The notes: a model not told the origin generated them from the letters alone. Counted from the first letter of the stretch, positions 3,785 through 17,215 are shown. The stretch: DNA of 64,000 nucleotides from an uncultured Bradymonadales bacterium (GCA_964503485.1 CAZDBH010000003.1:678-64677), one strand, 5' to 3'. Numbers and translations: made by a program.

Positions 3785-4471
3785 ATGGTTCAGTTCAATC
3801 TGAAAAAGCGCGAAGTTGCAATCAAGATCGTTTACTACGGCCCGCCGTTGAGCGGCAAAACCACGAACCTGCAAGCGCTTTTCGGAGAAGCCGACAAAAT
3901 GTCTCGTGGCCGGCTGGTCACTCTCGAGACACGCGACGACAGAACGATCTACTTCGACATGTTGCCGGTTGTCCTGTCCTCTCGCTCCGGCCATCGTCTG
4001 ACCTTCAAGCTCTACACAGTACCCGGGCAGCCGGTGCACAATGCGACCCGTCGAGTCGTGCTGCGGGGAGTGGATGGGGTTGCGTTTATTGCCAGCAGCG
4101 AGCGCAATGAGCTCGAGAACAACACACTGTCGTGGTCGAACCTATTGGAGAACCTCGAGGCCAATAACCTGAAAATTCAGGACGTCCCGGCGGTCATCCA
4201 GTTCAATAAACAAGACCTGCCAGACGTCCTTACGGCCGCCGAAATGAAGGCCGTGGAACGTTATTCCGGTGTACCGACCTTCGGAGCCACTGTCATTCGC
4301 GGAGAGGGGGCGTACGAAACCCTCAATGGGCTGCTGTTGCGGCTCTGGGATCAACTCTGTGAACGGCAGAACCTCGACAAGCGGCTCGGCTTGACCAAAG
4401 AAGAATTCGCTTCACACGTCAAAAAAGTCTTTGGAAAATCGTTAAATCCCTATGGACGACCTGGGTTCTGA
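3785..4471 (+). CDS. mglA: MglA-family Ras-like small GTPase (paralogue of the mutual gliding-motility protein A).
   Basis: IKIVYYGPPLSGKTTNLQ is the P-loop. RDDRTIYFD carries the intrinsic Arg finger and YTVPGQ the catalytic Gln. NKQDL is the G4 box. It aligns along its length to M. xanthus MglA. A start at 3749 is also possible. No Roadblock/LC7 (MglB) gene is adjacent, so it may be a paralogue rather than the true mglA. Confidence 0.7.
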   Translation: MVQFNLKKREVAIKIVYYGPPLSGKTTNLQALFGEADKMSRGRLVTLETRDDRTIYFDMLPVVLSSRSGHRLTFKLYTVPGQPVHNATRRVVLRGVDGVAFIASSERNELENNTLSWSNLLENLEANNLKIQDVPAVIQFNKQDLPDVLTAAEMKAVERYSGVPTFGATVIRGEGAYETLNGLLLRLWDQLCERQNLDKRLGLTKEEFASHVKKVFGKSLNPYGRPGF

Positions 4472-5828
4472 AATAAGCGTCTCCCTCGCGGAAGTCGTTC
4501 ACAAAGACCGCGAGCTCTTTCAAGAGGTTTGCCAGAGCTATGTCGATCTGTATCGAGTAGCGGTGAAACTTCTCGACAACCAGGGTAGCCGACTGATGGA
4601 CATCCCCAGTCGCGCCGAGCTCTGCCAGTATATCTATGGCTTCCAGACCTGCCGGCTGGGATGTGTTCGCACGGTAAACGCGATCCGATTCCACGAACCG
4701 GCCTTTCAAACAGTGGAACAATCCGTCTGTTTCAGCGGCGCAGAGTACCGAATCGTCCCAATCCACTATGCTACTGACGTAGTTGGCAAGGTCGTCTTCG
4801 GACCGTTTCTGCCGACCACTGTCACGGGCCCTCCAGCGCACTTCTTGGCCATGGATCCGGGTCTGGACGCACGAGCCGCATGGGAAAAAACCGTGCGCTT
4901 CCGAAAGATGAGCCCCACTCTCGCCGAAAAGGTAGCTCGAAACCTGGCGACCGTGATCGAGGTGATGTCGTTTGTCGGTTTCAAGGGGCAGATGACAACC
5001 GATATGCACGTCGAATCGATAACCGAGGCCTACGCGGAGCTCGAAGCGAAGAACAAAGCACTCGAAGCATCCGTTCATACCCTTCAAGGCCTCAACGAAG
5101 AACGCTCGACCTTCCTCGCGAGAATCAGCGATCAGGTCAAGAAGCCGCTCACTAATCTCATCGGATATGCAGAAATGTTGGCCGAAGGAATCGGCGGCGA
5201 CGTTACCGAGGATCAGACCGAGTTTCTCGGGACGATGATCGCCCAAGGCGAACTGATTCTCGGTCTTGCTGAAACGATGGATGAGTTGTCCCTGATCGAG
5301 CGAGGTCAGATCAACATCGCCCCCCATTCGGCGTCGATCGAAGAGCTGCTCATGTCGGTCTTGGACTTTGGGCAGAAGCAAGGCGAGCTACACGACGTCG
5401 AGGTCGAGATTCTCCCAGCCGATCCAGACCTGCCAAAGCTGTGGGTCGACGAAGACAGAATCCGCTCGATTCTGCTGAGAATCATCGACAACGCTGTTAA
5501 GTTCACCCCCGCTGGCGGTCGAGTTGTGATTTCGGCCTTTGGGGAGGACGACATAACCGATGGCGATCCTGTGCCACCCGGCTTCGTCGCATTAGCTGTA
5601 ACCGACAGCGGAATCGGCGTGTCCCCGGCCTATCACGACCAGCTCTTTCACCCGTTCTACAGTGTTCACGGCGCCGAGTCCGCATACACCGGAACGGGCG
5701 TTGGTCTCACGATTGCGGCCGCCTATGCCGAGGCACACGGCGGCAAGATACTCGTGCAGAGCAAGCCAAACGCCGGCTCGACGTTTAGCATCCTCCTGCC
5801 AACCAGTCCGTCGAGTTCACTTCCTTAG
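4452..5828 (+). CDS. Sensor histidine kinase with a Cys-containing N-terminal sensor domain (PocR-like?), HisKA and HATPase_c domains.
   Basis: The H-box is ERSTFLARISDQVKKPL. The N box (IIDNAVKF), G1 (DSGIGV) and G2 (GTGVGL) motifs are present. It overlaps the MglA-like gene by 20 nt. The N-terminal 190 aa are soluble and carry four Cys residues. Confidence 0.8.
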   Translation: MDDLGSEISVSLAEVVHKDRELFQEVCQSYVDLYRVAVKLLDNQGSRLMDIPSRAELCQYIYGFQTCRLGCVRTVNAIRFHEPAFQTVEQSVCFSGAEYRIVPIHYATDVVGKVVFGPFLPTTVTGPPAHFLAMDPGLDARAAWEKTVRFRKMSPTLAEKVARNLATVIEVMSFVGFKGQMTTDMHVESITEAYAELEAKNKALEASVHTLQGLNEERSTFLARISDQVKKPLTNLIGYAEMLAEGIGGDVTEDQTEFLGTMIAQGELILGLAETMDELSLIERGQINIAPHSASIEELLMSVLDFGQKQGELHDVEVEILPADPDLPKLWVDEDRIRSILLRIIDNAVKFTPAGGRVVISAFGEDDITDGDPVPPGFVALAVTDSGIGVSPAYHDQLFHPFYSVHGAESAYTGTGVGLTIAAAYAEAHGGKILVQSKPNAGSTFSILLPTSPSSSLP

Positions 5829-5831
5829 CTG

Positions 5832-6812
5832 ATGTCTGAGTTCTCGAACATCGATATCTTCGTAGACCGTCTTGGCGGAAGGGGCTCCTTTGGAGGTGTA
5901 GAGATCGGAAGTGGCGACGACGCCGCTGTTCTTCGAGGAGGGACCTGGCCAGTCGTGTCGGTCGACACGCTGGTCGAAGGTGTTCACTGGGATGAGAAAT
6001 ACTCGAGCTGGGAGGATGTGGGGTACAAATTGTTGGCCTGCAACCTGAGTGATATGGCCGCGATGGGTGCCATTCCAGGGCCCTTCTTGTTGGCGCTCAG
6101 TCTGCCCTCGGCACAGGACGCCGACCTAGCACGTCGGCTGGCCGAAGGCCTGGCCATGGCGCGGGAACCCCACGGCCTGAAAGCTGAAATGGTCCGCCCG
6201 ATTGGGGGAGACTTGACCCGAAGTCCGGGCCCGGCGGTCCTTTCCTTAACCCTTTTCGGACAACCCGGACCTGGCGAGCGCCTTCTGCTGAGGAGCGGCG
6301 CCCGAGTTGGCGACAGTATCTGGGTATCAGGACGCCTTGGCCTCTCCGCCAGTGGCCTTGCGGTTCTCGAAGCAGGCTGCGATCCACAACCGTTCGAAAG
6401 GGCGATTTCTCGTCACCGGCGTCCGGCGGCTCGGCTGGAGCTGGGTCTTGCGCTTGCTGAACATGCAGGGGTCAGCGCCGCCATCGACATCAGCGACGGC
6501 ATCGGCGGCGATCTCCCACATATTCTGCGGGCATCGGGCGGCCTTGGTGCGACCATCCGGGCGGACGACCTTCCGATCGCGGACGAGACCGAGCGCGCTG
6601 GGTCCATTCTCGGACTCGATCCGCTGGAGCTGGCGATTGGGGGCGGCGAGGACTTCGAGCTCTTGGTTACAGCAACGTCCGACGAAGACGCCAACCTGAC
6701 GGCGTTGGGATTGACACCTATCGGGCGCGTTGTGGAAGAGCCGGGCATCACTTACACTGCTCGAGGGGGGAAGCTATCGAATCACGTGATTTTTGGCTAC
6801 CAACACGAGTGA
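5832..6812 (+). CDS. thiL: Thiamine-monophosphate kinase (AIR-synthase-related fold).
   Basis: DDAAVL...VVSVDTLVEGVHW and a later ISDGIGGDL match the ThiL/PurM-like signature. Length 326 aa. Confidence 0.75.
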   Translation: MSEFSNIDIFVDRLGGRGSFGGVEIGSGDDAAVLRGGTWPVVSVDTLVEGVHWDEKYSSWEDVGYKLLACNLSDMAAMGAIPGPFLLALSLPSAQDADLARRLAEGLAMAREPHGLKAEMVRPIGGDLTRSPGPAVLSLTLFGQPGPGERLLLRSGARVGDSIWVSGRLGLSASGLAVLEAGCDPQPFERAISRHRRPAARLELGLALAEHAGVSAAIDISDGIGGDLPHILRASGGLGATIRADDLPIADETERAGSILGLDPLELAIGGGEDFELLVTATSDEDANLTALGLTPIGRVVEEPGITYTARGGKLSNHVIFGYQHE

Positions 6813-6818
6813 CCCCAG

Positions 6819-7766
6819 ATGGAGTACGGACTTCAGAGCGAAGGGTTTGCGTCAAGCTACGCCGCTGACGTAGCCCCGAAGTGGGACAAGGAACTCTGCG
6901 ACGCACTTCGGCCCTACCTGGCCCACGTCGACAATGAGAATGCGCTTGCGGCCGAGTGCCGCGCTGGGCAAATCTGCGACCTCATTTTGGAGTCCGTCGG
7001 AACCGGGCGGGTAATGGCTGTCGATCCGTCCCGAGAGATGCTCGATGTGGCGCGGGGCCGTCTCGCCGAACGGGACGGGCAGTCTGTGTTCTTCAACTGC
7101 CAGTCGACCACCAATCTCAGCTACGCAGGTGGCGTCTTTGGACGTGCAGTATGTCTGGCCGCACCGCTCACCAGGAAGAAGGCCAATCTCGTCGTGGGCG
7201 AACTCAATCGGGTTGTGAAGCCCGGTGGTCTCCTCGCGATTGCGGCACCGGTTTCGGGAACCGACGTGTTTCTCGACCTCCTAGTCGAATCGATCTGCGC
7301 CTGCGCGGCCCTCAACGAGAGATTGCTCGAGGACGTCGAGGCTTTTCGGAACGATCTGGTCAGCGCGGAATCACTGTCTGATTCCCTCGAGCGCCGGGGA
7401 GCCACGGTTGTGGCCAGCGGTCAAATCGACGCCGTGGCTCAGATCAATTATCCTCAAGCGCTCTACTTCACTCCCCTTCTGCAACACCTTTTGCTGCCAC
7501 ATTGGTTGGACGTGGTTTCAGTTCCAGCGCAGCGGAAAGAGCTGATGCAGGACGTCATTAAGAGGGTGCAGCACTACTTCGAGGGTATGGACCTGTCGAT
7601 CACAATCAGCGGCGCTTGGATCGTCGCCAGTACATCCGAAGAGCGACACGAAGAGATCTACGAGATCGAGGACCTCGATGTCGCCGAGGTCGAAGAGGCT
7701 GTGAGCGTCACCTCGAGAGACCTCTTCGATCCGCTGGATGACGACGCACACGAGCCGCCGCTGTGA
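6819..7766 (+). CDS. Class I SAM-dependent methyltransferase-like protein.
   Basis: ILESVGTGRVMAVDPS resembles motif I and VKPGGLL resembles the post-I/motif II region. The call is weak. Confidence 0.45.
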   Translation: MEYGLQSEGFASSYAADVAPKWDKELCDALRPYLAHVDNENALAAECRAGQICDLILESVGTGRVMAVDPSREMLDVARGRLAERDGQSVFFNCQSTTNLSYAGGVFGRAVCLAAPLTRKKANLVVGELNRVVKPGGLLAIAAPVSGTDVFLDLLVESICACAALNERLLEDVEAFRNDLVSAESLSDSLERRGATVVASGQIDAVAQINYPQALYFTPLLQHLLLPHWLDVVSVPAQRKELMQDVIKRVQHYFEGMDLSITISGAWIVASTSEERHEEIYEIEDLDVAEVEEAVSVTSRDLFDPLDDDAHEPPL

Positions 7767-10700
7767 TACCGAACGACCCAGCCAATCTCCGGCCGGGGTC
7801 TCTATTTGCAGGCCGGTATGTCATTCAGTTGAGAGTGGCCACCGGACCCCTATCAGTTGTCCATTTCGCCAGACGTACCGACACAGGACAGCGGGTCGCG
7901 ATCAAATGCCTGCGGGTTGACCGTATAGCCGACGCGGACGTCAGTCGCAGCTTCCGTTCCGAGTGTTTGGTGGCCTCTGGATTACGACATCGAAACACAG
8001 TCCAACTACTCGACTATGGTGCCACCGGTGGCATCCCGTATCTGGTTATGGAAGCCGTGCTGGGATCCAATCTGGGCGGTGTGCTCAAGACGGGAGGCAA
8101 ACTTTCCCCACAACGCGTGACACGCATCGTCAAACAGGTTCTGGATTCGCTCGAAGAGGCGCACAGCCTCGGAGTCCTACACCGCGACATCAAGCCAACC
8201 AACATCATGTTGGCTCAACACCCGTTCGAGAAGGACTTCGTCAAAGTCCTCGACTTCGGGACCGCCACGACGGTGGGCGCTGCAGCCTCGACCCCCTTGG
8301 CAGGGACACCGCTCTACATGGCTCCCGAGCTTACTCAGGGGACGTCGGCGAGCATCGGAAGCGACTTGTACTCGCTGGGCTGCGTGGCATACGAGCTCTC
8401 GGTTGGCAGACCGCCGTTCGAGGGTGAGTCGGCGATCGATACAATGATGATGCACGCCAAGGAGCCTTTTCCTTCGCTGCCCAACGACCTCCACTCACCC
8501 GCTCTGGTGGAGTTCATACAGTGGACTACTCAGAAGGACCCGACTTCGCGTTTGAGGGACGCTCGGACGGCCAGATTGACCCTGACGGGTGAGCGCCAGT
8601 TTGCAACCTTGCCACCGCCCCTATTCCATCGTTTTGGGCAGGTACCCGCAGTCCCGCTCAAAGCCGGAGAGACCTTGAGAGCGGTCGAGGTGGAGAGACG
8701 TGATGACTCCAACCGGCTGTTACGCGCGGTGGTTGAGGCCGTCGACTCGCCTCTTCCGACCTTTGTGTTCCTGACCGGATTGTCGGGTTCGGGGGTAAGT
8801 AGATTGGCAAGCGACGTGCTGGCTCTGGACGCTATCCAGAGACGAGTCGAGGTGAAGTCCGCTCGCTGTTGGCCGTCGAAAACATCCGAAGGCAAGCCAC
8901 TGGCGAATGCCTTCGCAGAGCCAGACGACGGCGATCCGCTTTCGAGGCTCGAAATGGCCACACGGCTGTGGGATAGGGCAAAGGAAAGGCCCTCGCTCCT
9001 GTTCTTGGACGAGATTCATCTTGCTGACGAGCTTACGCTCGGAATACTGGAACGCTGGCTCCATAAGGGTCGGGGAATCCCCCAGAATCTCACAGTGGTG
9101 GGAACGGTTCGTCTGCACGATCCGCGTACCAATCGCGGCTTCGATCAGATCTGCGGCCGCCTCGTGGGCCGATGGGCCCAACATCTGAGAGTCATCTCGA
9201 TCGAGAACCCGCCGGTATCGCAGGTGGGTGAGCTCGTATCCGAGACGTTCGGACCGTCAGACCAAGCAAAGCAGATCCTGTGGAATCTGACCCGTGGCCA
9301 TCTGCATTACCTGACCCAACTCTACCATCACTGCCACCAAGACCGCTCAGCGCGAATGGCGGTGGCGACCATCACCAAAACCACCGGCGCCAGAGGTCCA
9401 GAACTGCGAATGCCGACCAGTTTTCGCGATCTCGTAATCCGGCGGCTTGCGTCTACTCGAACCGAATCGCCGGGCCTCCACTATACGTTGCTCGCGCTCG
9501 CGGTGCTGGGCGGGAGCGCACGTGTAACCAAGCTCGACGAGATGGCAAAGGCTCTGCCCGACCAAGAGGAGGGCCTCTTCAGCCTCGATGATGTCGCCGA
9601 CTACGTTTCGCTCGGTTGCTCGCTCGGCTTACTAGTGGATGAGAGCACTGGTCACGAAACGCGCGTCCGGCTTGCCAACGACGCACTGTTCGAGGTCATC
9701 GTCTCGTCGATGATCGACAGTGGCCAATGGCAGACCGCCAACCTGAAAGCGGCACAAACTGCGCTGAGTACACAGCGAGGTGCATTCGGCCAACATTCTA
9801 CCTCGGCGTTTCACGCTCTCATCGGCGGAAACGTCGCAGAAGGATGCCGGCAGTTGATTCAAGCCTCTCACACCGCCCGTTCTGGCGGAGATCTGGTGCA
9901 CGCCGGCCAGCTTCTGGAGCTGGCCCACTTGCGTGCCGAGGCGGCAGAACTCTCGCCGCAAGAACGTCTACAGATCATGTTGCTGCTGGCCGAAATCAAA
10001 CGAACCTCGGGGGTCTGGGGAGCAGCCCAAGACTTGTTTGAACGAGCCCTCGAGTTCCCGCATACCGAGGACGACTCGGAACGCCGGTTGCGTTTGCGGC
10101 TCGATCTCGCCGACGTGATGATCTCCCGGGGCGACTTAGAGAACGCGAGGGAGCAACTGAGTTCCGCGCTGGGTGCAGCTGCGGAGCTGGAGCGATTCGA
10201 CCTCGAGGGGGAAACCTCTTTCCACCTCGGCAAGCTCGAAGCAGAGGCCGGCAATCCGGAACAAGCCCAGAGCCTATTTCAGCACGCTAGATTGCTGTTG
10301 AGTCAACAGGGCGATCGTGACTGGCTTCTGAAGATCGATGTCGCTCTCGCAAACTCACTCTTGGAGAGTGGGCAGAACACAGCCGCTCAGCAGTCCCTTT
10401 CACGGGTCGACGAGTCCGCGATCGCCCAATTGGGTGGCACTGTCGAGGCGTCGTTCTTTCACATCAGAGCGAAGTTGGCGTTGCGGTCAAAGGACTACTC
10501 CAAGGCCAAAGAGGACCTCCGAGCGGCGGTCAAGTTGAGGCAGGCCGCGGGGGAAGATCGACAACTCGGTCGATTGATCATGGACCTGGCCTGGACGTAC
10601 TTTCGAGAGGGCAGCTATCAGCGTGCTGCCCGGAGCGCAGCCAGCGCTGCCCGGAACTTTGCGATCGTCGACTATGCCTCCGGAGAATCGGCCGCTCGAG

Positions 10701-11347
10701 CGCTGCTGATCCGCGCCTCCTACCAGAGCAGGAACTTCAATGATGTGATCGACGGGGCGGAGGAGGCCTTGAGCTTGAGTGAATTCGTGGACAACACGGT
10801 CGAGTGGGCCTCAACCTCCCATTTCGCGTGTCGTGCTGCGCTCCGTGTGGGGTCCAGCGAGGAAGCCCTGAGGCATGCTCAGAACCTCAATGGTCATGTC
10901 GAGCAACACGGTCTGGAAAAACTCCGAGCTGCCGCGACACTCGATCTGGCTGACAGCCTGTTTTGCAATGGTAGATTCGAGGAAGCTCGCGGTCAGGTCG
11001 AGGCCGAATCGGCCGCGTTAGTTGCCCAGCCGTGGGCGACCGAAGCCGCCTTCCTGAGATTGCGCCTGGCCATTCTGGACCGACCGGCCGATATCGAAGC
11101 AGCTGCCGGCTTGGTCCTGTCACAACTCGACTCAGTCGACCCGTATGCCGATCTCGAGGGAAGGCTGCTCTTGGCCTTGTCAGCGGAACTCGGTTGGGCT
11201 GGGTGTCCGGGTGACAACCCGACTCGCCTCTTCGACCTATCAAAGCAGCCAGGCTCAGATCCAGCGGCAACACTCGACTATCTCTTGGGGTCTCATGCTT
11301 CAGATCAGGTCGAACACGCCCGACAGGCGGTGTTGAGGAAACTCTAG
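7763..11347 (+). CDS. Ser/Thr protein kinase fused to a STAND-type NTPase domain and C-terminal TPR-like repeats.
   Basis: Kinase motifs are VAIKCL, HRDIKPTNIM, DFG and APE. A central P-loop-like segment (FLTGLSGSGVSRL) and a Walker B (LLFLDEIH) follow. The C-terminal about 500 aa are alpha-helical repeats. The start overlaps the upstream stop. Confidence 0.8.
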   Translation: MIPNDPANLRPGSLFAGRYVIQLRVATGPLSVVHFARRTDTGQRVAIKCLRVDRIADADVSRSFRSECLVASGLRHRNTVQLLDYGATGGIPYLVMEAVLGSNLGGVLKTGGKLSPQRVTRIVKQVLDSLEEAHSLGVLHRDIKPTNIMLAQHPFEKDFVKVLDFGTATTVGAAASTPLAGTPLYMAPELTQGTSASIGSDLYSLGCVAYELSVGRPPFEGESAIDTMMMHAKEPFPSLPNDLHSPALVEFIQWTTQKDPTSRLRDARTARLTLTGERQFATLPPPLFHRFGQVPAVPLKAGETLRAVEVERRDDSNRLLRAVVEAVDSPLPTFVFLTGLSGSGVSRLASDVLALDAIQRRVEVKSARCWPSKTSEGKPLANAFAEPDDGDPLSRLEMATRLWDRAKERPSLLFLDEIHLADELTLGILERWLHKGRGIPQNLTVVGTVRLHDPRTNRGFDQICGRLVGRWAQHLRVISIENPPVSQVGELVSETFGPSDQAKQILWNLTRGHLHYLTQLYHHCHQDRSARMAVATITKTTGARGPELRMPTSFRDLVIRRLASTRTESPGLHYTLLALAVLGGSARVTKLDEMAKALPDQEEGLFSLDDVADYVSLGCSLGLLVDESTGHETRVRLANDALFEVIVSSMIDSGQWQTANLKAAQTALSTQRGAFGQHSTSAFHALIGGNVAEGCRQLIQASHTARSGGDLVHAGQLLELAHLRAEAAELSPQERLQIMLLLAEIKRTSGVWGAAQDLFERALEFPHTEDDSERRLRLRLDLADVMISRGDLENAREQLSSALGAAAELERFDLEGETSFHLGKLEAEAGNPEQAQSLFQHARLLLSQQGDRDWLLKIDVALANSLLESGQNTAAQQSLSRVDESAIAQLGGTVEASFFHIRAKLALRSKDYSKAKEDLRAAVKLRQAAGEDRQLGRLIMDLAWTYFREGSYQRAARSAASAARNFAIVDYASGESAARALLIRASYQSRNFNDVIDGAEEALSLSEFVDNTVEWASTSHFACRAALRVGSSEEALRHAQNLNGHVEQHGLEKLRAAATLDLADSLFCNGRFEEARGQVEAESAALVAQPWATEAAFLRLRLAILDRPADIEAAAGLVLSQLDSVDPYADLEGRLLLALSAELGWAGCPGDNPTRLFDLSKQPGSDPAATLDYLLGSHASDQVEHARQAVLRKL

Positions 11348-11363: not shown

Positions 11364-12182
11364 TCACTCGCTAGCAAGAGGCTGAACGGTGACGTTGTAG
11401 GTCGCTCTCACCCTCGGGTTGTGGCTTCCGACGTAGATCCTCACCAGTCCTTCTGAGAACCAGGCATCAATGGCTGGGTTGATTGAACCGCGGCTGTCGT
11501 CATTGCAGAAGATGCCATCGGACGATTTGACCACCAGCGTCAAGTCGCTCGACGACTCGGCCAAGATTCCCAGGTGCGCGTCGCTCGACAGCAAAATCGT
11601 GTGATTGGCCTCTTCCGAGATTGCCCCCAAGCAGGCTGCTCCATGAACCTGTGCGGACTGATCGCCCCCGCTGGTTCCCTGCAGCCGAAGCGGTCTGCTG
11701 CCCGTGACTTCTGGGGCGAGCGGCCGACCGGTATGGCTCACCAGAACGGAGTACTCACCCGTGGCATCACTGCTGGTGGTGCCGACGTAAAGCGAATACT
11801 CCCCGATTGCGAGGTAGTTGGTTAGCGCCGGGTCGCGATTCGTCTCAGATGCGTCATCGTTGCAGAAGCCCAAGTTCCCACCGCCCAGAAGTAAAGTCGG
11901 ATCGTGGTCTCCGTCTGTTGTGACTTCGACGCGAATGACGCCCTCTTCGATCACATCGAGAAGGAACTGGGGTTGGCGCGATACATAGCCCGGACAGCCG
12001 TGGACGACGGATCCGGCTGAAACCTCGCCACCATAGCTACCCGAGAAGTTTCCAGTGAATCCCTCGCGCACGATGATCCGGGATGGCCCCGTCTGGGCAC
12101 TGGCCACACAGGCTATGACCGTTACAATCATCCAGATAGTGATCGATATATGAACTCTCAGGGAGCGAGTTCCGTGTTGCAT
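11364..12182 (-). CDS. Secreted protein with two internally duplicated PPC-like (pre-peptidase C-terminal) beta-sandwich domains.
   Basis: A signal peptide (ITIWMIVTVIACVASAQ) is followed by two repeats, each ending in LGFCNDD or GIFCNDD with DPTLLL / DLTLVV motifs. Confidence 0.5.
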   Translation of the reverse strand: MQHGTRSLRVHISITIWMIVTVIACVASAQTGPSRIIVREGFTGNFSGSYGGEVSAGSVVHGCPGYVSRQPQFLLDVIEEGVIRVEVTTDGDHDPTLLLGGGNLGFCNDDASETNRDPALTNYLAIGEYSLYVGTTSSDATGEYSVLVSHTGRPLAPEVTGSRPLRLQGTSGGDQSAQVHGAACLGAISEEANHTILLSSDAHLGILAESSSDLTLVVKSSDGIFCNDDSRGSINPAIDAWFSEGLVRIYVGSHNPRVRATYNVTVQPLASE

Positions 12183-12321: not shown

Positions 12322-13251
12322 ATGGCAATCGTCCTCCTGATTGACCCGAGTCGAACGATTCGACGGGTTGTCGAAATGGCCTTCAAGGCTTCCGGGCATG
12401 ATATTGTGGCTGCCGATTCGGCTGCTGCGGGCAAAGAGGCGGTGGTTCGATATGATCCAGCAGTCGTCTTGCTCAACTACCGTCTGCCCGACGCCTCCGG
12501 TCTTGAATTGTTGGGTGCACTAAGAGCCGATCCTGCGACCTCTGGCGTGCCGATTGTCGTTATGGGTGGAACCTTCGAGGCCTTTGATGCGGACCAAGCC
12601 GCGCAAGCGGGCGCGAACTCGGTCCTGATGAAACCCTTCAAAACAGAAGCTTTGCGGCAAACCGTCGCCGGACTGATCAGTGGTGCAGGCGTTCCTGCTA
12701 GCGCACAGCCTTCGGCGCCACAGCCAGCCGCGCTTCCGCAGGCACCGCCACCACCGCCACCTGCACCGCAGGGAATGAGGCCTCCAGCTCCAATGGCCGC
12801 CCCTCGGCCGGCAGCAGCTGCGCCACCGGCACCGCCCGCACCTCCGAGAATGGCACCGCCTCCGGCGCCGCCAGTAAGGCAGGCTCCCGCAATGGCACCT
12901 CCGGTGGCACCGCCACCGGCCGCGCCGCCCGCGCCGCCAGTTGCGATGGCTGCTCCGGTTCCGCCGGTCGCTGCGCCAGTACCAGCTTCACCGCCTGTCC
13001 CGAGTGGCAGACCAGTCGGAGCGCCTCCTGCGGCCATGGTGACCGCCGATCCTGAAGCAGTCAGGGCGGCAGTTCGGGAGTTTCTACCCCAGGTAGTGCG
13101 CGACGCCCTCGCCCAGTTGCTTCGTGATGGACTAGAAAATCGCCTGCGCAGCTACGCCCAGGAACGGGTGGCGGCCATGTTCCGAGAGAACCTGCGCGAG
13201 ACTGCTCGCCAGCTCGTGGAACAAGAGCTTCAACGCTACCGAGGCGGATGA
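12322..13251 (+). CDS. Response-regulator-like protein: receiver domain with the phospho-acceptor Asp replaced (pseudo-receiver), a long Pro/Ala-rich linker and a conserved helical C-terminal domain (RomR/FrzS-like architecture).
   Basis: N-terminal LLIDPSRTIRR..VVLLNYRLPDASG..VMKPF has the receiver fold, but the residue at the canonical phosphorylation position is Asn (LLN). About 110 aa of P/A low complexity follow, then a helical 60-aa tail. Confidence 0.65.
   Translation: MAIVLLIDPSRTIRRVVEMAFKASGHDIVAADSAAAGKEAVVRYDPAVVLLNYRLPDASGLELLGALRADPATSGVPIVVMGGTFEAFDADQAAQAGANSVLMKPFKTEALRQTVAGLISGAGVPASAQPSAPQPAALPQAPPPPPPAPQGMRPPAPMAAPRPAAAAPPAPPAPPRMAPPPAPPVRQAPAMAPPVAPPPAAPPAPPVAMAAPVPPVAAPVPASPPVPSGRPVGAPPAAMVTADPEAVRAAVREFLPQVVRDALAQLLRDGLENRLRSYAQERVAAMFRENLRETARQLVEQELQRYRGG
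12700..13020 (+). repeat. GC-rich low-complexity tract encoding the Pro/Ala-rich linker of the pseudo-receiver protein.
   Basis: Reiterated ccgcc(a/g)ccggc(a/g)ccgcc units. It generates long spurious antisense ORFs. Confidence 0.6.
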
Positions 13252-13898: not shown

Positions 13899-14342
13899 AT
13901 GAAGCGCTTTCTTAGCGACGTATTGGCCCAGAAGGGGGGTACCGTTTACAGCGTGGCTCCTGATGCCACGGCTCTTGAGGCCGTTCACCTCATGAACGAA
14001 AAAGGCATCGGGGCGGTCCTCGTATTAGTCGATGGCAAAACTGTCGGCATCTTCTCCGAACGAGATGTACTTCGCCGGGTCCTGGACGACGGCTTGGATG
14101 CCGCAAAAACCGCGGTTAGCGAGGTCATGACCAAAAAAGTGGTCTCGATGCGTTCGGACAAGACAGTCAATGAGGCGATGGGCGTCATGACCGAGAAACG
14201 CTGCCGCCATCTTCCGATTATCGACGATGACGAACTGAAAGGAGTCCTCTCTGTCGGCGACCTAACGAAGTGGGTTTGTCGGGATCAGGAACATGAGATC
14301 GAGGAAATGATCGACTACATCGTGGGCCGGTATCCCGGCTAG
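13899..14342 (+). CDS. CBS-domain pair protein.
   Basis: Two CBS repeats are present (GAVLVLVDGKTVGIFSERDVLRRV and RHLPIIDDDELKGVLSVGDL). A good RBS (GGAGG) precedes the start. 147 aa. Confidence 0.75.
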   Translation: MKRFLSDVLAQKGGTVYSVAPDATALEAVHLMNEKGIGAVLVLVDGKTVGIFSERDVLRRVLDDGLDAAKTAVSEVMTKKVVSMRSDKTVNEAMGVMTEKRCRHLPIIDDDELKGVLSVGDLTKWVCRDQEHEIEEMIDYIVGRYPG

Positions 14343-17215
14343 TCGTGGTGAATCGATTCAGGCACTGGCGTTGTCGAGTGGACCGAGTCCTCCTCGTCGC
14401 TGACTTCTGTCTGAGAGACCTCGTCGATCAGAATCGAGTCTCCCTCCACGCCAGCCAGCAAGCATGTGGTCACCGGTTCGATAACACGCTCAGAGAACAA
14501 TCGGCGAAGGTCGCGAGCGTCAGTGAGCTTGAGGGCGTCTGCCTTGATGAGCTCCTCGGTTCGCGACTCGATATCAAGCTGCAGACCGTAGCCCTCTAGG
14601 AGACTGGCGCGAAATCGGGCCAGCTGTTGCTCGAAAAGTGCGCCGATTAAAGCACCGCCGGATGACGCGGCCGATTCGAACAAGATGGGGTGGTGAGCGT
14701 AACACTTCAGTTTAGCGCCCAGGCGCTCGTCATGAGCCTCCAGAAGGCGCGAGGCTCTTGCCCTCGTGTCCTTCACCGGATCGGCGCTTCCAAATCCGAT
14801 CCGCTTCAGTTCCTCTACGCCAGTGTTGACGGTCAGAACGAATACAGCGTGACTCGCGTCGGCGACCATACCCCGAGTATCCCTGATCTTGCCCTCTTCG
14901 AAGAGCGCAAAAAACCGGTCCTGAACTTGAGGATGGGCGAGATCGAAGTCTTCGAGTAGTACGACCGAAGTCGGCCGTCGCCTCAAGGGCGTCACGAGCG
15001 CGTCTTCGTCCTGATAACCTACGTAGCCTGGGGGCGAACCGATCAAACGACTGATCGCGTGCGCCTCCTGGAAATCGGTCATGTTGAGACGAATCAAGGC
15101 TCGAGTATCAGCGTAGATCTCCTTCGCGAGCGCTTTGGCCAGGTCGGTCTTGCCTACAGCCGGTGGCCCGACGAAGACGAAGACTGCTTGGGGACCGCTG
15201 CTCATTCCAGAGCGGAGGCGGCCCGACACCAGTGCGCGAGCCGATTGCTGGACTGCAGCCTCCTGTCCAATCACGTAGGGTTTGAGGCGAGATGCTAAAC
15301 CAACCCACCAACCCTGCTCGCCGTGAACGAGACGGTCGAGAGGCAGTCCCGTCTTCAGGGCGATTTGGGCGGCCACCGACTCCCGCGAAACCACGGGCAG
15401 CGTCGCCTGTGGCGCACCGCTATCGTTGTTCGAAGCCTCGTCCTGTGGCTGGTCGTCGACACTCTCGGCAGCCTTGATGGATTCAGCGATCGCCGCGTCC
15501 ATCAGCAGTTTCTTGGCCTTATCGGGCAGCCGTTGTTCTGGCAGGAAGCGGACAGAGAGCTCCAACGCCGCCACGACCGCTTCGTCAGAGACGCGAACTT
15601 CGTAGTCCTTTTCGTAGGCACTGACCAAACTGTGGAGGATCGATGCGCACAGCTCCTCTTCGGGCTCTGGGACCTCAATCCGCTCGAAGCGGCGCTTCAA
15701 GGCTGGATCTTGCTCGATCCAGCGGTGATATTCTGTCTCTGTGGTCGCTGCGACCACCGCAACATCGCCGTTAGCTAGCGCTGCTTTGAAGTGATTTGGA
15801 ACCTCGGCGGGCTGCCCGCTTCCACTCCTTGGCGAGAAAACCGCGTGGGCTTCGTCGATGAACAGGATGACTTTGTTGGTCGCTTCGAGAAGCAACGCTT
15901 TGATTCGCGCCTCGAGATCACCCCTGTAGCTCGTTCCGCCGATCAGGCTGGCGCCGTTGATCTCGACAACGCGGCAGCCGAGCAACTTGGCGGGGACGTT
16001 CCCTTGTTCGATGCGCGTTGCGAGCGCTGAGGCAAGGGCCGTCTTACCGACTCCAGCCTCTCCGGTCAGCAGTGGGTTGCGCTGTTCCGGTCGCAGTAGG
16101 ACGTTGATCATCCGTTGCAGCTCACGGTCTCGGCCGAGGATTTTCGGGAGGCGCCCGTTGGCAGCCTCGGCCGTCAGGTCCCGCCCCAGTAGGTCCAGCA
16201 TCGGCGTGGGCGACAGCGAACCGGCCAAATCGTCTCCGCGGTCCTGTTCGGCCAGAGCAGCACCCTCGAGCACTTTTGGATCGCCGAGCAAACTCCGGAT
16301 TTCGGATTCGAGACCTAGCGCTCGGATCAACTCGAGGCTGGAACCACCGTCTGCTAGAAAGCCCTCAACCAGATTGGCCTCGCCGACTCGACCCTTGAGG
16401 CCCGCCTTGTCCGATGCATAGGTCAGCATCCGAACCAGTCGAGGGGTCATCGTTCGGCGAGAGAGCAAGAACACGGGCTGTGCTGGAAAGCGAACCCCGA
16501 CAATCCGCAGGAGTTCCTCTCTCAGTTTTCGCGGATCGACGCCTGATGCTTCCGATGCCCGCCACAGGATGCTCTCTCTGAGGCTGCACAAAACTGCCAC
16601 GACGTGGGGAGTACCCAAGAAGGGCATTCCGTTCTTGGCCGCGAGTTGCATGGCGTCTTGCATGACTCGCCAGGTCTGCTCGATAAACGCAGTGGGTCGA
16701 AGCACGCCATCGGTATCGAAGAGGGTGTCGCTTCCCGGTGCAGCCAGCTGCCGAATCGCCCATCGTACTGATGCTGATTCCTGTACCTCGGCTCGCCAGC
16801 CGACGACTCGGGCAAGATCGTTCTCGGAGACCCGGTCCCAGCCAGCTTCGCGAGCCCAATTGAGAGCGTCGTCGAGAATACCGATGAATCCGAGGGAAAA
16901 GTTGTCGACCAGAAGCCTTGGCTCACCGTCCGTCTCGCGCTCGACGCGTCGTGCCAGTTCCTCGATGTCTGCAAGAATGTTCTGAGTCGTACCGGAACCT
17001 CGGGAAGCCCGAGCTAGCTGCTCGCCTAGTTCGTCGTGTCCGCTGCGGAGAAGGACGACAATCAAGTCGATCGGAAGGAACAGAGAGCGACCTACCTCGC
17101 CGAGCCAATCGCGAGTGTTTTCCAAGGCCTTCCAGGCCTTGGCGTCAAACAAATGACGTTGTAGATAACCTTCGCCGTCGTACAAACCCGACGACGTAGA
17201 CTGCCCTTTCATCAA
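14339..17215 (-). CDS. Clp/Hsp100-family double-AAA+ ATPase (ClpV/ClpA-like, short middle domain) with an extended duplicated N-terminal region.
   Basis: AAA1 has Walker A (GEAGVGKTA) and Walker B (ILFIDEAH). AAA2 has VGPPAVGKTDLAK, VVLLEDFD and a sensor-2 region. There is no long ClpB-type coiled-coil M-domain. About 360 aa precede AAA1. Confidence 0.8.
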   Translation of the reverse strand: MMKGQSTSSGLYDGEGYLQRHLFDAKAWKALENTRDWLGEVGRSLFLPIDLIVVLLRSGHDELGEQLARASRGSGTTQNILADIEELARRVERETDGEPRLLVDNFSLGFIGILDDALNWAREAGWDRVSENDLARVVGWRAEVQESASVRWAIRQLAAPGSDTLFDTDGVLRPTAFIEQTWRVMQDAMQLAAKNGMPFLGTPHVVAVLCSLRESILWRASEASGVDPRKLREELLRIVGVRFPAQPVFLLSRRTMTPRLVRMLTYASDKAGLKGRVGEANLVEGFLADGGSSLELIRALGLESEIRSLLGDPKVLEGAALAEQDRGDDLAGSLSPTPMLDLLGRDLTAEAANGRLPKILGRDRELQRMINVLLRPEQRNPLLTGEAGVGKTALASALATRIEQGNVPAKLLGCRVVEINGASLIGGTSYRGDLEARIKALLLEATNKVILFIDEAHAVFSPRSGSGQPAEVPNHFKAALANGDVAVVAATTETEYHRWIEQDPALKRRFERIEVPEPEEELCASILHSLVSAYEKDYEVRVSDEAVVAALELSVRFLPEQRLPDKAKKLLMDAAIAESIKAAESVDDQPQDEASNNDSGAPQATLPVVSRESVAAQIALKTGLPLDRLVHGEQGWWVGLASRLKPYVIGQEAAVQQSARALVSGRLRSGMSSGPQAVFVFVGPPAVGKTDLAKALAKEIYADTRALIRLNMTDFQEAHAISRLIGSPPGYVGYQDEDALVTPLRRRPTSVVLLEDFDLAHPQVQDRFFALFEEGKIRDTRGMVADASHAVFVLTVNTGVEELKRIGFGSADPVKDTRARASRLLEAHDERLGAKLKCYAHHPILFESAASSGGALIGALFEQQLARFRASLLEGYGLQLDIESRTEELIKADALKLTDARDLRRLFSERVIEPVTTCLLAGVEGDSILIDEVSQTEVSDEEDSVHSTTPVPESIHHD

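Follow-up and report, generated by a model that had tools for sequence, protein, structure and literature searches.

Can a STAND protein keep its nucleotide-binding oligomerisation domain (NOD) under selection once residues that hold the nucleotide have gone? In the accepted mechanism, common to MalT, Apaf-1, NLRs and Avs, ADP clamps the protein in a closed state and multimerisation depends on ATP. The question is raised by a gene in a 64,000-nucleotide stretch of DNA from an uncultured Bradymonadales bacterium (GCA_964503485.1 CAZDBH010000003.1:678-64677; this whole stretch is hereafter called the window, and positions count from its first letter), which encodes a Ser/Thr kinase followed by a central STAND domain and C-terminal tetratricopeptide repeats (TPRs). 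The initial annotation pointed out that the P-loop of the STAND domain, GLSGSGVS, has valine where Walker A requires lysine; it suggested a nucleotide-binding but hydrolysis-dead switch or else a miscalled motif, mentioned Avs-like immune sensors, and proposed a profile-profile search and a comparison of Walker A across orthologues as checks. The kinase-STAND/AAA_16 NOD-TPR architecture was borne out by Pfam, HHalign and AlphaFold2 modelling combined with Foldseek, and we report here that the window protein has been selected without key nucleotide contacts of the accepted mechanism.

The central region is a genuine STAND NOD of the MalT/AAA_16 clade and GLSGSGVS is its P-loop, because both a profile-profile alignment and matches of the modelled structure to the Protein Data Bank (PDB) identify it as such. 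The Pfam model AAA_16 matched residues 313-437 with 25.3 bits, under its gathering score of 32.6. When the family NOD was aligned by HHalign with 17 canonical AAA_16 NODs, which were loci chosen solely by their Walker B pattern, the match extended over 394 columns with a probability of 99.94% (E = 1.5e-36) and put Val345 on the invariant lysine, thereby excluding a miscalled motif. The AlphaFold2 model of the NOD, built on a multiple sequence alignment of 13 sequences (pLDDT 82.3, pTM 0.76), has a five-strand nucleotide-binding domain (NBD), a helical domain (HD) and a winged helix; it replaced a poor earlier model on three sequences (pLDDT 62). Its best PDB matches by Foldseek were the closed ADP form of Apaf-1 (3sfz and 1z6t; TMq 0.61-0.64), CED-4 and MalT (8bob_C; TMq 0.60, TMt 0.62). 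The MalT-like arm and TPR region that follows contains an HFACR motif (residues 1020-1024) that is invariant across orthologues. The TPR region of the orthologue P0002 scored 43.6 bits with TPR_MalT, just short of the gathering score of 45. Simpler searches were less informative. A phmmer search of the NOD against the PDB matched only UvrA P-loops (LTGLSGSGKS against LTGLSGSGVS, window 8759-8800) over about 40 residues, and was rejected as a chance match. With the NOD alone as query, a word-indexed protein search gave no match; with a three-sequence profile it gave only three weak generic AAA_16 matches, among which the family of the query itself was missing.

The lysine of Walker A binds phosphate, as the main ligand of the beta- and gamma-phosphates. 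In the window protein its place is taken by Val345, encoded by GTA (nt 8795-8797), which is two base changes away from any lysine codon. Neither GxxxxGK[ST] nor the relaxed form [AG]xxxxG[KR][ST] was found by a motif scan of all 1194 residues, which rules out a second, hidden P-loop and upholds the description of a Walker A without its lysine; Walker B, LLFLDEIH, was likewise found to be kept, and aligns with the canonical motif. The lysine is not the only residue to have gone. In the 17 canonical NODs, each of the columns G9/R10, K42, R186, P251 and H361 is either invariant or shows at least 90% conservation, and the window protein deviates at four such positions (R312, V345, L514 and N639), while the backbone glycines of GxxGxG, Ser346, Asp416/Glu417 and Arg450 are kept. 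In the crystal structure of the TPR-STAND protein PH0952, ADP is contacted by the P-loop, the GxP motif, the histidine of the winged-helix domain (WHD) and the L0 loop, with GxP touching the adenine and the histidine the beta-phosphate (PMC6468293). Because further nucleotide contacts have been lost besides the Walker A lysine, namely the GxP proline, the L0 glycine and the WHD histidine, the residues suggest that nucleotide binding itself is impaired, and not hydrolysis alone. P-loop variants that are hydrolysis-dead yet binding-competent normally stem from changes in Walker B. The proposal of a nucleotide-binding but hydrolysis-dead domain was therefore right about the lysine, whereas binding is not well supported with these three other residues also gone, although some residual binding may persist.

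Directly after the degenerate GxP motif lies a family-specific QLYHH (residues 519-523), in the helix whose counterpart lines the adenosine/ribose site of canonical STANDs. All four known lineages have this motif unchanged, though deep orthologues share only about 29% identity in the HD-WHD around it.

A sequencing error or strain polymorphism at codon 345, which the initial annotation had considered, is refuted, as is an assembly error, because three further assemblies from other samples (L027, L028 and L047) carry the gene without a single nucleotide difference, lysine is two bases away, a sister genome has the P-loop GVSGSGVS with a synonymous GTG in place of GTA, and P0002 lacks the lysine as well. 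A frameshift or an alternative start as the source of the motif is likewise out, since colinearity with the orthologues extends back to residue 1. Judged from the sequences compared, loss of the lysine is unusual in the AAA_16 clade, because every comparator NOD retains GK[ST] (57/57 combined): 22/22 remote HMMER or profile matches with a locatable P-loop, and 35/35 assessable AAA_16 loci picked by Walker B pattern alone. The 35 loci came from scans of genome and metagenome contigs that the generic Walker B pattern had saturated and that gave only remote AAA_16 relatives; we reused these as an unbiased set for the Walker A comparison. In two loci, L002 (9716-...) and L033 (a Thermoplasmatota metagenome-assembled genome), the AAA_16 open reading frame (ORF) opens just past the expected P-loop, possibly owing to a split gene, a frameshift or a truncated NOD; both were excluded from the Walker A count.

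How the pocket came to be dismantled can be followed in the few relatives of the protein. An exhaustive HMMER search with the NOD (1.84 billion cluster representatives, standing for about 15 billion proteins) returned only 23 matches, and just three related clusters at 50% identity: the window protein, P0002 (35% identity) and P0003 (32%). All three are colinear kinase-NOD-TPR proteins and positional orthologues. A sister genome (L048-L050), found by a search with the upstream methyltransferase-like protein, has a fully syntenic locus whose kinase-NOD-TPR protein is 79.5% identical in amino acids to the window protein, so that only four lineages are known. Comparison of Walker A across these orthologues gave GAAGMGKS, GPQGIGTT and G[LV]SGSGVS, and the other motifs change along the same series (Table 1). 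P0003 and P0029 keep GKS, the sensor-1 arginine and the GxP proline and have lost the WHD histidine; P0002 reads GTT and has serine for the sensor-1 arginine. AAA_16 bit scores drop from 60.5 in P0003 to 45.1 in P0002 and to the score of the window protein given above. ThiL, encoded in the same operon, is about 54% identical among the three deep lineages. The window and P0002 loci also match downstream, where both have an ORF for a secreted protein and genes for a response regulator and for DUF1285-like and ClpB-like proteins, and their NBD and methyltransferase-like proteins are 43-44% identical, against 33-38% for either with P0003. In the simplest history, the WHD histidine would have been lost in the ancestor of the family and the lysine once in the ancestor of the window protein and P0002, followed by separate losses in each.

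Table 1. Nucleotide-pocket motifs in canonical AAA_16 NODs and in the orthologue series; the L048 column was taken from a separate sister-genome alignment.
Motif	Canonical	P0003/P0029	P0002	Window	L048
L0 GR motif	VGR	VGR	VHR	ERR	DRR
Walker A	GEPGIGKT	GAAGMGKS	GPQGIGTT	GLSGSGVS	GVSGSGVS
Walker B	LLLLDDLH	VLFLEDLH	ILFLDDLH	LLFLDEIH	ILFLDEIH
Sensor 1	GTYR	ATAR	GTVS	GTVR	GTVR
GxP	GNP	GDP	GRP	GHL	GHL
WHD FxH	FxH	FSS	LSS	LAN	LAA

The NOD is maintained by purifying selection and is not decaying, because nonsynonymous divergence in its NBD and HD is at or below that of the gene as a whole and of thiL, synonymous codon changes have left its motif residues the same, and its reading frame is intact. Between the window and L048, dN by the Nei-Gojobori method was 0.139 in the NBD, 0.078 in the HD and 0.165 in the WHD, compared with 0.083 in the kinase, 0.137 in the TPR region, 0.141 over the whole gene and 0.163 in thiL of the same operon. 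Residues of the P-loop, Walker B and the GHL-QLYHH stretch are kept through many synonymous codon changes: such changes are found in L048 at Gly339, Gly344, Val345, Ser346, Arg347 and Leu348, and residues 508-524 (GHL-QLYHH) are identical despite nine of them. Constraint is also seen in the lineage that retains the lysine, with an omega between P0003 and P0029 of 0.073 overall, falling to 0.034 in the NBD. For the deep pair without lysine, the window protein and P0002, identity is 43% in the NBD, 29% in the HD-WHD and 34% in the TPR region. Full-length, intact ORFs, 35-80% identical, occupy the same operon position in all four lineages.

At the other end of the protein, the catalytic residues of the kinase were described as complete in the initial annotation, and a motif scan located all of them: VAIK at 45-48, HRD at 140-142, DFG at 164-166 and APE at 187-189. 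The key residues K48, E67 (the alpha-C glutamate) and HRDIKPTN at 140-147 (HRDxKxxN) are present, the catalytic residues are invariant across three orthologues, and the kinase is apparently active. Its Gly-rich loop reads ATGPLSVV, in which just the middle glycine of GxGxxG remains, so that both nucleotide-binding loops of the protein, this one and the P-loop of the NOD, are atypical. G28, S31 and V33 of this loop do not vary among the three deep orthologues, and its atypical form is probably tolerated. The GTG start of the gene shares four nucleotides (GTGA) with the stop of the upstream ORF, the translation is identical to the NCBI/ENA record P0028, and residue 1 as the start is backed by colinear orthologue alignments. 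A JGI gene call in L027 and L028 opens at Met96 (1099 aa), so that neither the Gly-rich loop nor the lysine of VAIK is left. Because the orthologues align from residue 1, the evidence supports the longer form, with the Met96 call being too short.

What, then, would a STAND domain do in a kinase without its nucleotide contacts? We lean, with modest confidence, towards a NOD that works as a scaffold or regulator within a PknK-like kinase independently of nucleotide, and no longer undergoes an ADP/ATP cycle. The protein would be a cytoplasmic signalling protein made of an N-terminal Hanks kinase, a MalT/AAA_16-clade NOD and a TPR sensor, in which the NOD would be a pseudo-NTPase, with a fold and a sequence kept by selection but a dismantled pocket (Lys to Val, Pro to Leu, Gly to Arg, His to Asn), and would no longer run the canonical cycle of ADP-to-ATP exchange and hydrolysis. 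Binding of a ligand or partner at the arm and TPR sensor would instead be passed by the NOD scaffold to the kinase, which would be activated through relief of autoinhibition, self-association or both, ending in trans-autophosphorylation of its Thr/Ser-rich activation loop. The translationally coupled protein with a methyltransferase fold, described below, may tentatively be put forward as a candidate partner.

Several points weigh against this scaffold role. The nucleotide-binding state of the NOD is deduced from its residues, and GxxGxG, Ser346 (at the position of the Mg ligand), Asp416/Glu417 and Arg450 are kept under selection, as if a nucleotide or phosphate ligand were bound. The likeness of the AlphaFold2 model to the closed, ADP-bound state of STAND proteins leads in the same direction, but may only mirror the training set and the alignment; the modelled conformation was given no weight as evidence on the ligand state. 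Synonymous divergence between the window and L048 is near saturation (pS 0.65-0.70), which makes the omega of roughly 0.05-0.1 indicative only. With its atypical Gly-rich loop, the kinase is itself only putatively active. Finally, kinase activation driven by oligomerisation would be an extrapolation from the general STAND model (PMC4381067, PMC6468293).

The strongest competitor, which we regard as possible but clearly less probable than the scaffold, is a NOD that still binds nucleotide through its P-loop amides, Ser346-Mg and Walker B without hydrolysing it, and thus acts as a permanently loaded, locked switch. This would account for the retention in both the window protein and L048 of the three P-loop glycines, Ser346, Asp416/Glu417 and Arg450 through synonymous changes, for an NBD dN that does not exceed the average of the gene, and for the fit of the AlphaFold2 model to closed ADP-form structures. 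However, such a switch would have to hold its nucleotide without the lysine, the main ligand of the beta- and gamma-phosphates. Natural P-loop modules that lack this lysine, such as ORC2/3, clamp-loader delta-prime and dynein AAA5/6, are not known to bind nucleotide, which counts against a binding-only switch. The replacement of the lysine also differs between the two lineages without it (Val here, Thr in P0002), as does the further loss, which is the GxP proline here and the sensor-1 arginine in P0002; such differing replacements and losses fit a pocket that is no longer selected for nucleotide. Lastly, a binding-only switch must do without the GxP proline, the L0 glycine and the WHD histidine, which are contacts according to PMC6468293.

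A more speculative and rather doubtful variant is that the former pocket (Val345, Leu514 and QLYHH) has been re-purposed for another small ligand or for the coupled methyltransferase-fold partner, in which case two 'dead' enzymes would control one live kinase. The gene for this candidate partner lies immediately upstream of the kinase gene, and translation of the two is apparently coupled. Its orthologues are found at 1917-2861 in L029, 478-1461 in L030 and 10001-10948 in L048, with a dN of only 0.072 between the window and the sister genome. At the S-adenosylmethionine (SAM) motif I, GxGxG is replaced by xCR[AT]G (AECRAGQ, APCRTGR and AQCRTGF), with Cys47, Arg48 and Gly50 invariant, where the solved methyltransferase 3bus_A reads VGCGIGK. 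The protein may be a second 'dead' enzyme that partners the kinase.

Could the NOD instead be a decaying remnant or an inert linker, or the whole gene a pseudogene? The window protein has the lowest, sub-threshold AAA_16 similarity of the series and has lost several motifs, as decay would predict, but the ORF is intact in four lineages, dN in the NBD and HD is at or below that of thiL, the NBD is better conserved between the window protein and P0002 than the HD-WHD or the TPRs, and its motifs are kept through synonymous changes. We consider decay very improbable.

The genes around the kinase bear on its wider role (Table 2). Orthologous loci have a common upstream order, namely an LppC-like gene, an M50 protease, a gene of unknown function, an Arf-like GTPase, a PocR histidine kinase, thiL, the methyltransferase-like gene and the kinase. 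The stretch from the GTPase to thiL (3785-6812, plus strand) forms an apparent operon with gaps of 3-6 nt, and its order is conserved in L043 and L048. The GTPase and the histidine kinase are unusual neighbours for a thiamine-phosphate kinase; thiL itself is genuine (TIGR01379, 249 bits). Downstream, a convergent ORF, with 16 nt between its stop and that of the kinase gene, encodes 272 aa with a hydrophobic N-terminus and matched neither Pfam nor NCBIfam; it is 46% identical in L029, present in L048 and absent from the P0003/P0029 loci. In the next ORF, a response-regulator receiver domain leads into a Pro/Ala-rich low-complexity tract, considerably longer than 100 aa, and then into a short helical C-terminus; the ORF has no recognised output domain, and is 64% identical in L029. 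A ClpB/ClpA-like double-AAA protein further on, 79% identical to its L029 counterpart against 40% for the kinase-NOD-TPR protein, provides a yardstick of divergence. Because operon position is conserved across a divergence as deep as that of ThiL, the evidence argues for a vertically inherited core regulator rather than an Avs-like immune gene, and no defence or mobile elements were found among the kinase gene's neighbours, which are housekeeping and signalling genes. Gene content tentatively points to a Myxococcota-like bacterium.

Table 2. Positions of the kinase-NOD-TPR gene, its domains and motifs, and neighbouring genes in the window.
Feature	Position	Strand	Residues	Remarks
Arf/MglA-like small GTPase	3785..4471	+		overlaps the histidine kinase gene
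PocR-HisKA-HATPase histidine kinase	4452..5828	+		upstream of thiL
thiL	5832..6812	+
Methyltransferase-fold ORF	6819..7766	+	315 aa	stop overlaps kinase start at every orthologous locus
Kinase-degenerate STAND NOD-TPR gene	7763..11347	+	1194 aa	Ser/Thr kinase N-terminal, TPRs C-terminal
Hanks-type Ser/Thr kinase domain	7763..8599	+	1-279	Pfam Pkinase 26-264, E 2.9e-46; NCBIfam PknB-type kinase 12-271, E 8e-66
Segment removed by the Met96 gene call	7763..8047	+
Kinase Gly-rich loop ATGPLSVV	7838..7861	+	26-33
ATLPPP linker, kinase to NOD	8603..8620	+		invariant in orthologue alignments
STAND NOD	8684..9697	+	~308-645	NBD 308-480, HD 481-545, WHD 546-645
L0 loop VERRDD	8690..8707	+		Arg312 replaces Gly of canonical VGRxxE
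Degenerate Walker A GLSGSGVS	8777..8800	+	339-346	Val345 in place of invariant Lys; three Gly and Ser346 kept
Walker B LLFLDEIH	8996..9019	+	412-419	D416, E417; kept, conserved in orthologues
Sensor-1 strand VVGTVR	9095..9112	+		Arg450 kept, aligned to GTYR; Ser in orthologue P0002
Degenerate GxP motif TRGHLHY, then QLYHH	9290..9331	+	GHL 512-514, QLYHH 519-523	GHL aligned to GNP; Pro to Leu514
QLYHH	9317..9331	+	519-523	directly after degenerate GxP
Winged-helix segment RVRLANDAL	9662..9688	+		Asn639 (nt 9677-9679) at conserved STAND His (FxH) position; Ser in P0002 and P0003, Ala in L048
Arm and TPR (MalT-like) sensor region	9698..11062	+	~646-1100	Pfam TPR_12, TPR_2, TPR_4 at 736-1084
ORF with hydrophobic N-terminus	11364..12182	-	272 aa	convergent with kinase gene
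Response-regulator receiver ORF	12322..13251	+
ClpB/ClpA-like double-AAA protein	14339..17215	-	958 aa

Very improbable too is an antiviral role as a STAND sensor, Avs-like or of another kind, with the kinase as its effector: Avs proteins do combine a STAND NTPase with a C-terminal TPR-like sensor, as here, and the kinase domain matches the PADLOC kinase models PD-T4-6, mad6 and PglW, but the PADLOC matches listed all lie within residues 4-311, the kinase domain, with no Avs or STAND model among them, the gene has a fixed place in a housekeeping operon across deeply diverged lineages rather than the turnover of the defence islands in which Avs proteins are typically found, and a dismantled pocket is at odds with nucleotide-dependent Avs assembly.

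The closest known counterparts, as judged by architecture, are PknK and other STAND kinases of the MalT clade, in which a Hanks kinase, an AAA_16 NOD and a TPR or MalT-like sensor follow each other in the same order as in the window protein. PknK of Mycobacterium tuberculosis has been classed as a STAND kinase alongside MalT (PMC4381067, PMC6468293), and is a soluble regulatory kinase that controls growth and the VirS/mymA operon (PMC3544749). What is new here is not the PknK-type architecture, which is already known, but the natural, selected loss of nucleotide contacts together with the orthologue series. Canonical kinase-AAA_16 proteins (P0005 and P0013, read as kinases from sequence, and L005, L010 and L018, flagged by the HRDxKxxN pattern) keep GxxGxGK[ST], the GxP proline and the WHD histidine, whereas the window protein has lost all three. 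The series GKS to GTT to GVS offers a natural succession of orthologues that bears on the role of a NOD without nucleotide, and on signalling from TPRs to a kinase without the switch. It also carries a warning for annotation: AAA_16 falls below its threshold in the window protein, and one gene caller cut off part of the kinase domain.

E. coli MalT and P. horikoshii PH0952 have the NBD-HD-WHD-arm-TPR order in common with the window protein, which keeps the signature of MalT-type STANDs in Walker B (hhhhD[DE]hH.AD) and in the WHD (LP..hR..h..RL). MalT, however, has a DNA-binding effector and the window protein a kinase, and the contacts through which MalT and PH0952 clamp ADP (P-loop, GxP and WHD histidine; PMC6468293) are missing, so their ADP/ATP switch is probably not operating here. 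Plant NLRs such as rice Pb1 and the ADR1 family are functional without a P-loop (PMC3782705). These are eukaryotic NB-ARC immune receptors with LRR sensors and no kinase effector, related to the window protein only through the STAND superfamily, but they provide a precedent for a NOD that serves as a scaffold or regulator without the canonical nucleotide motif.

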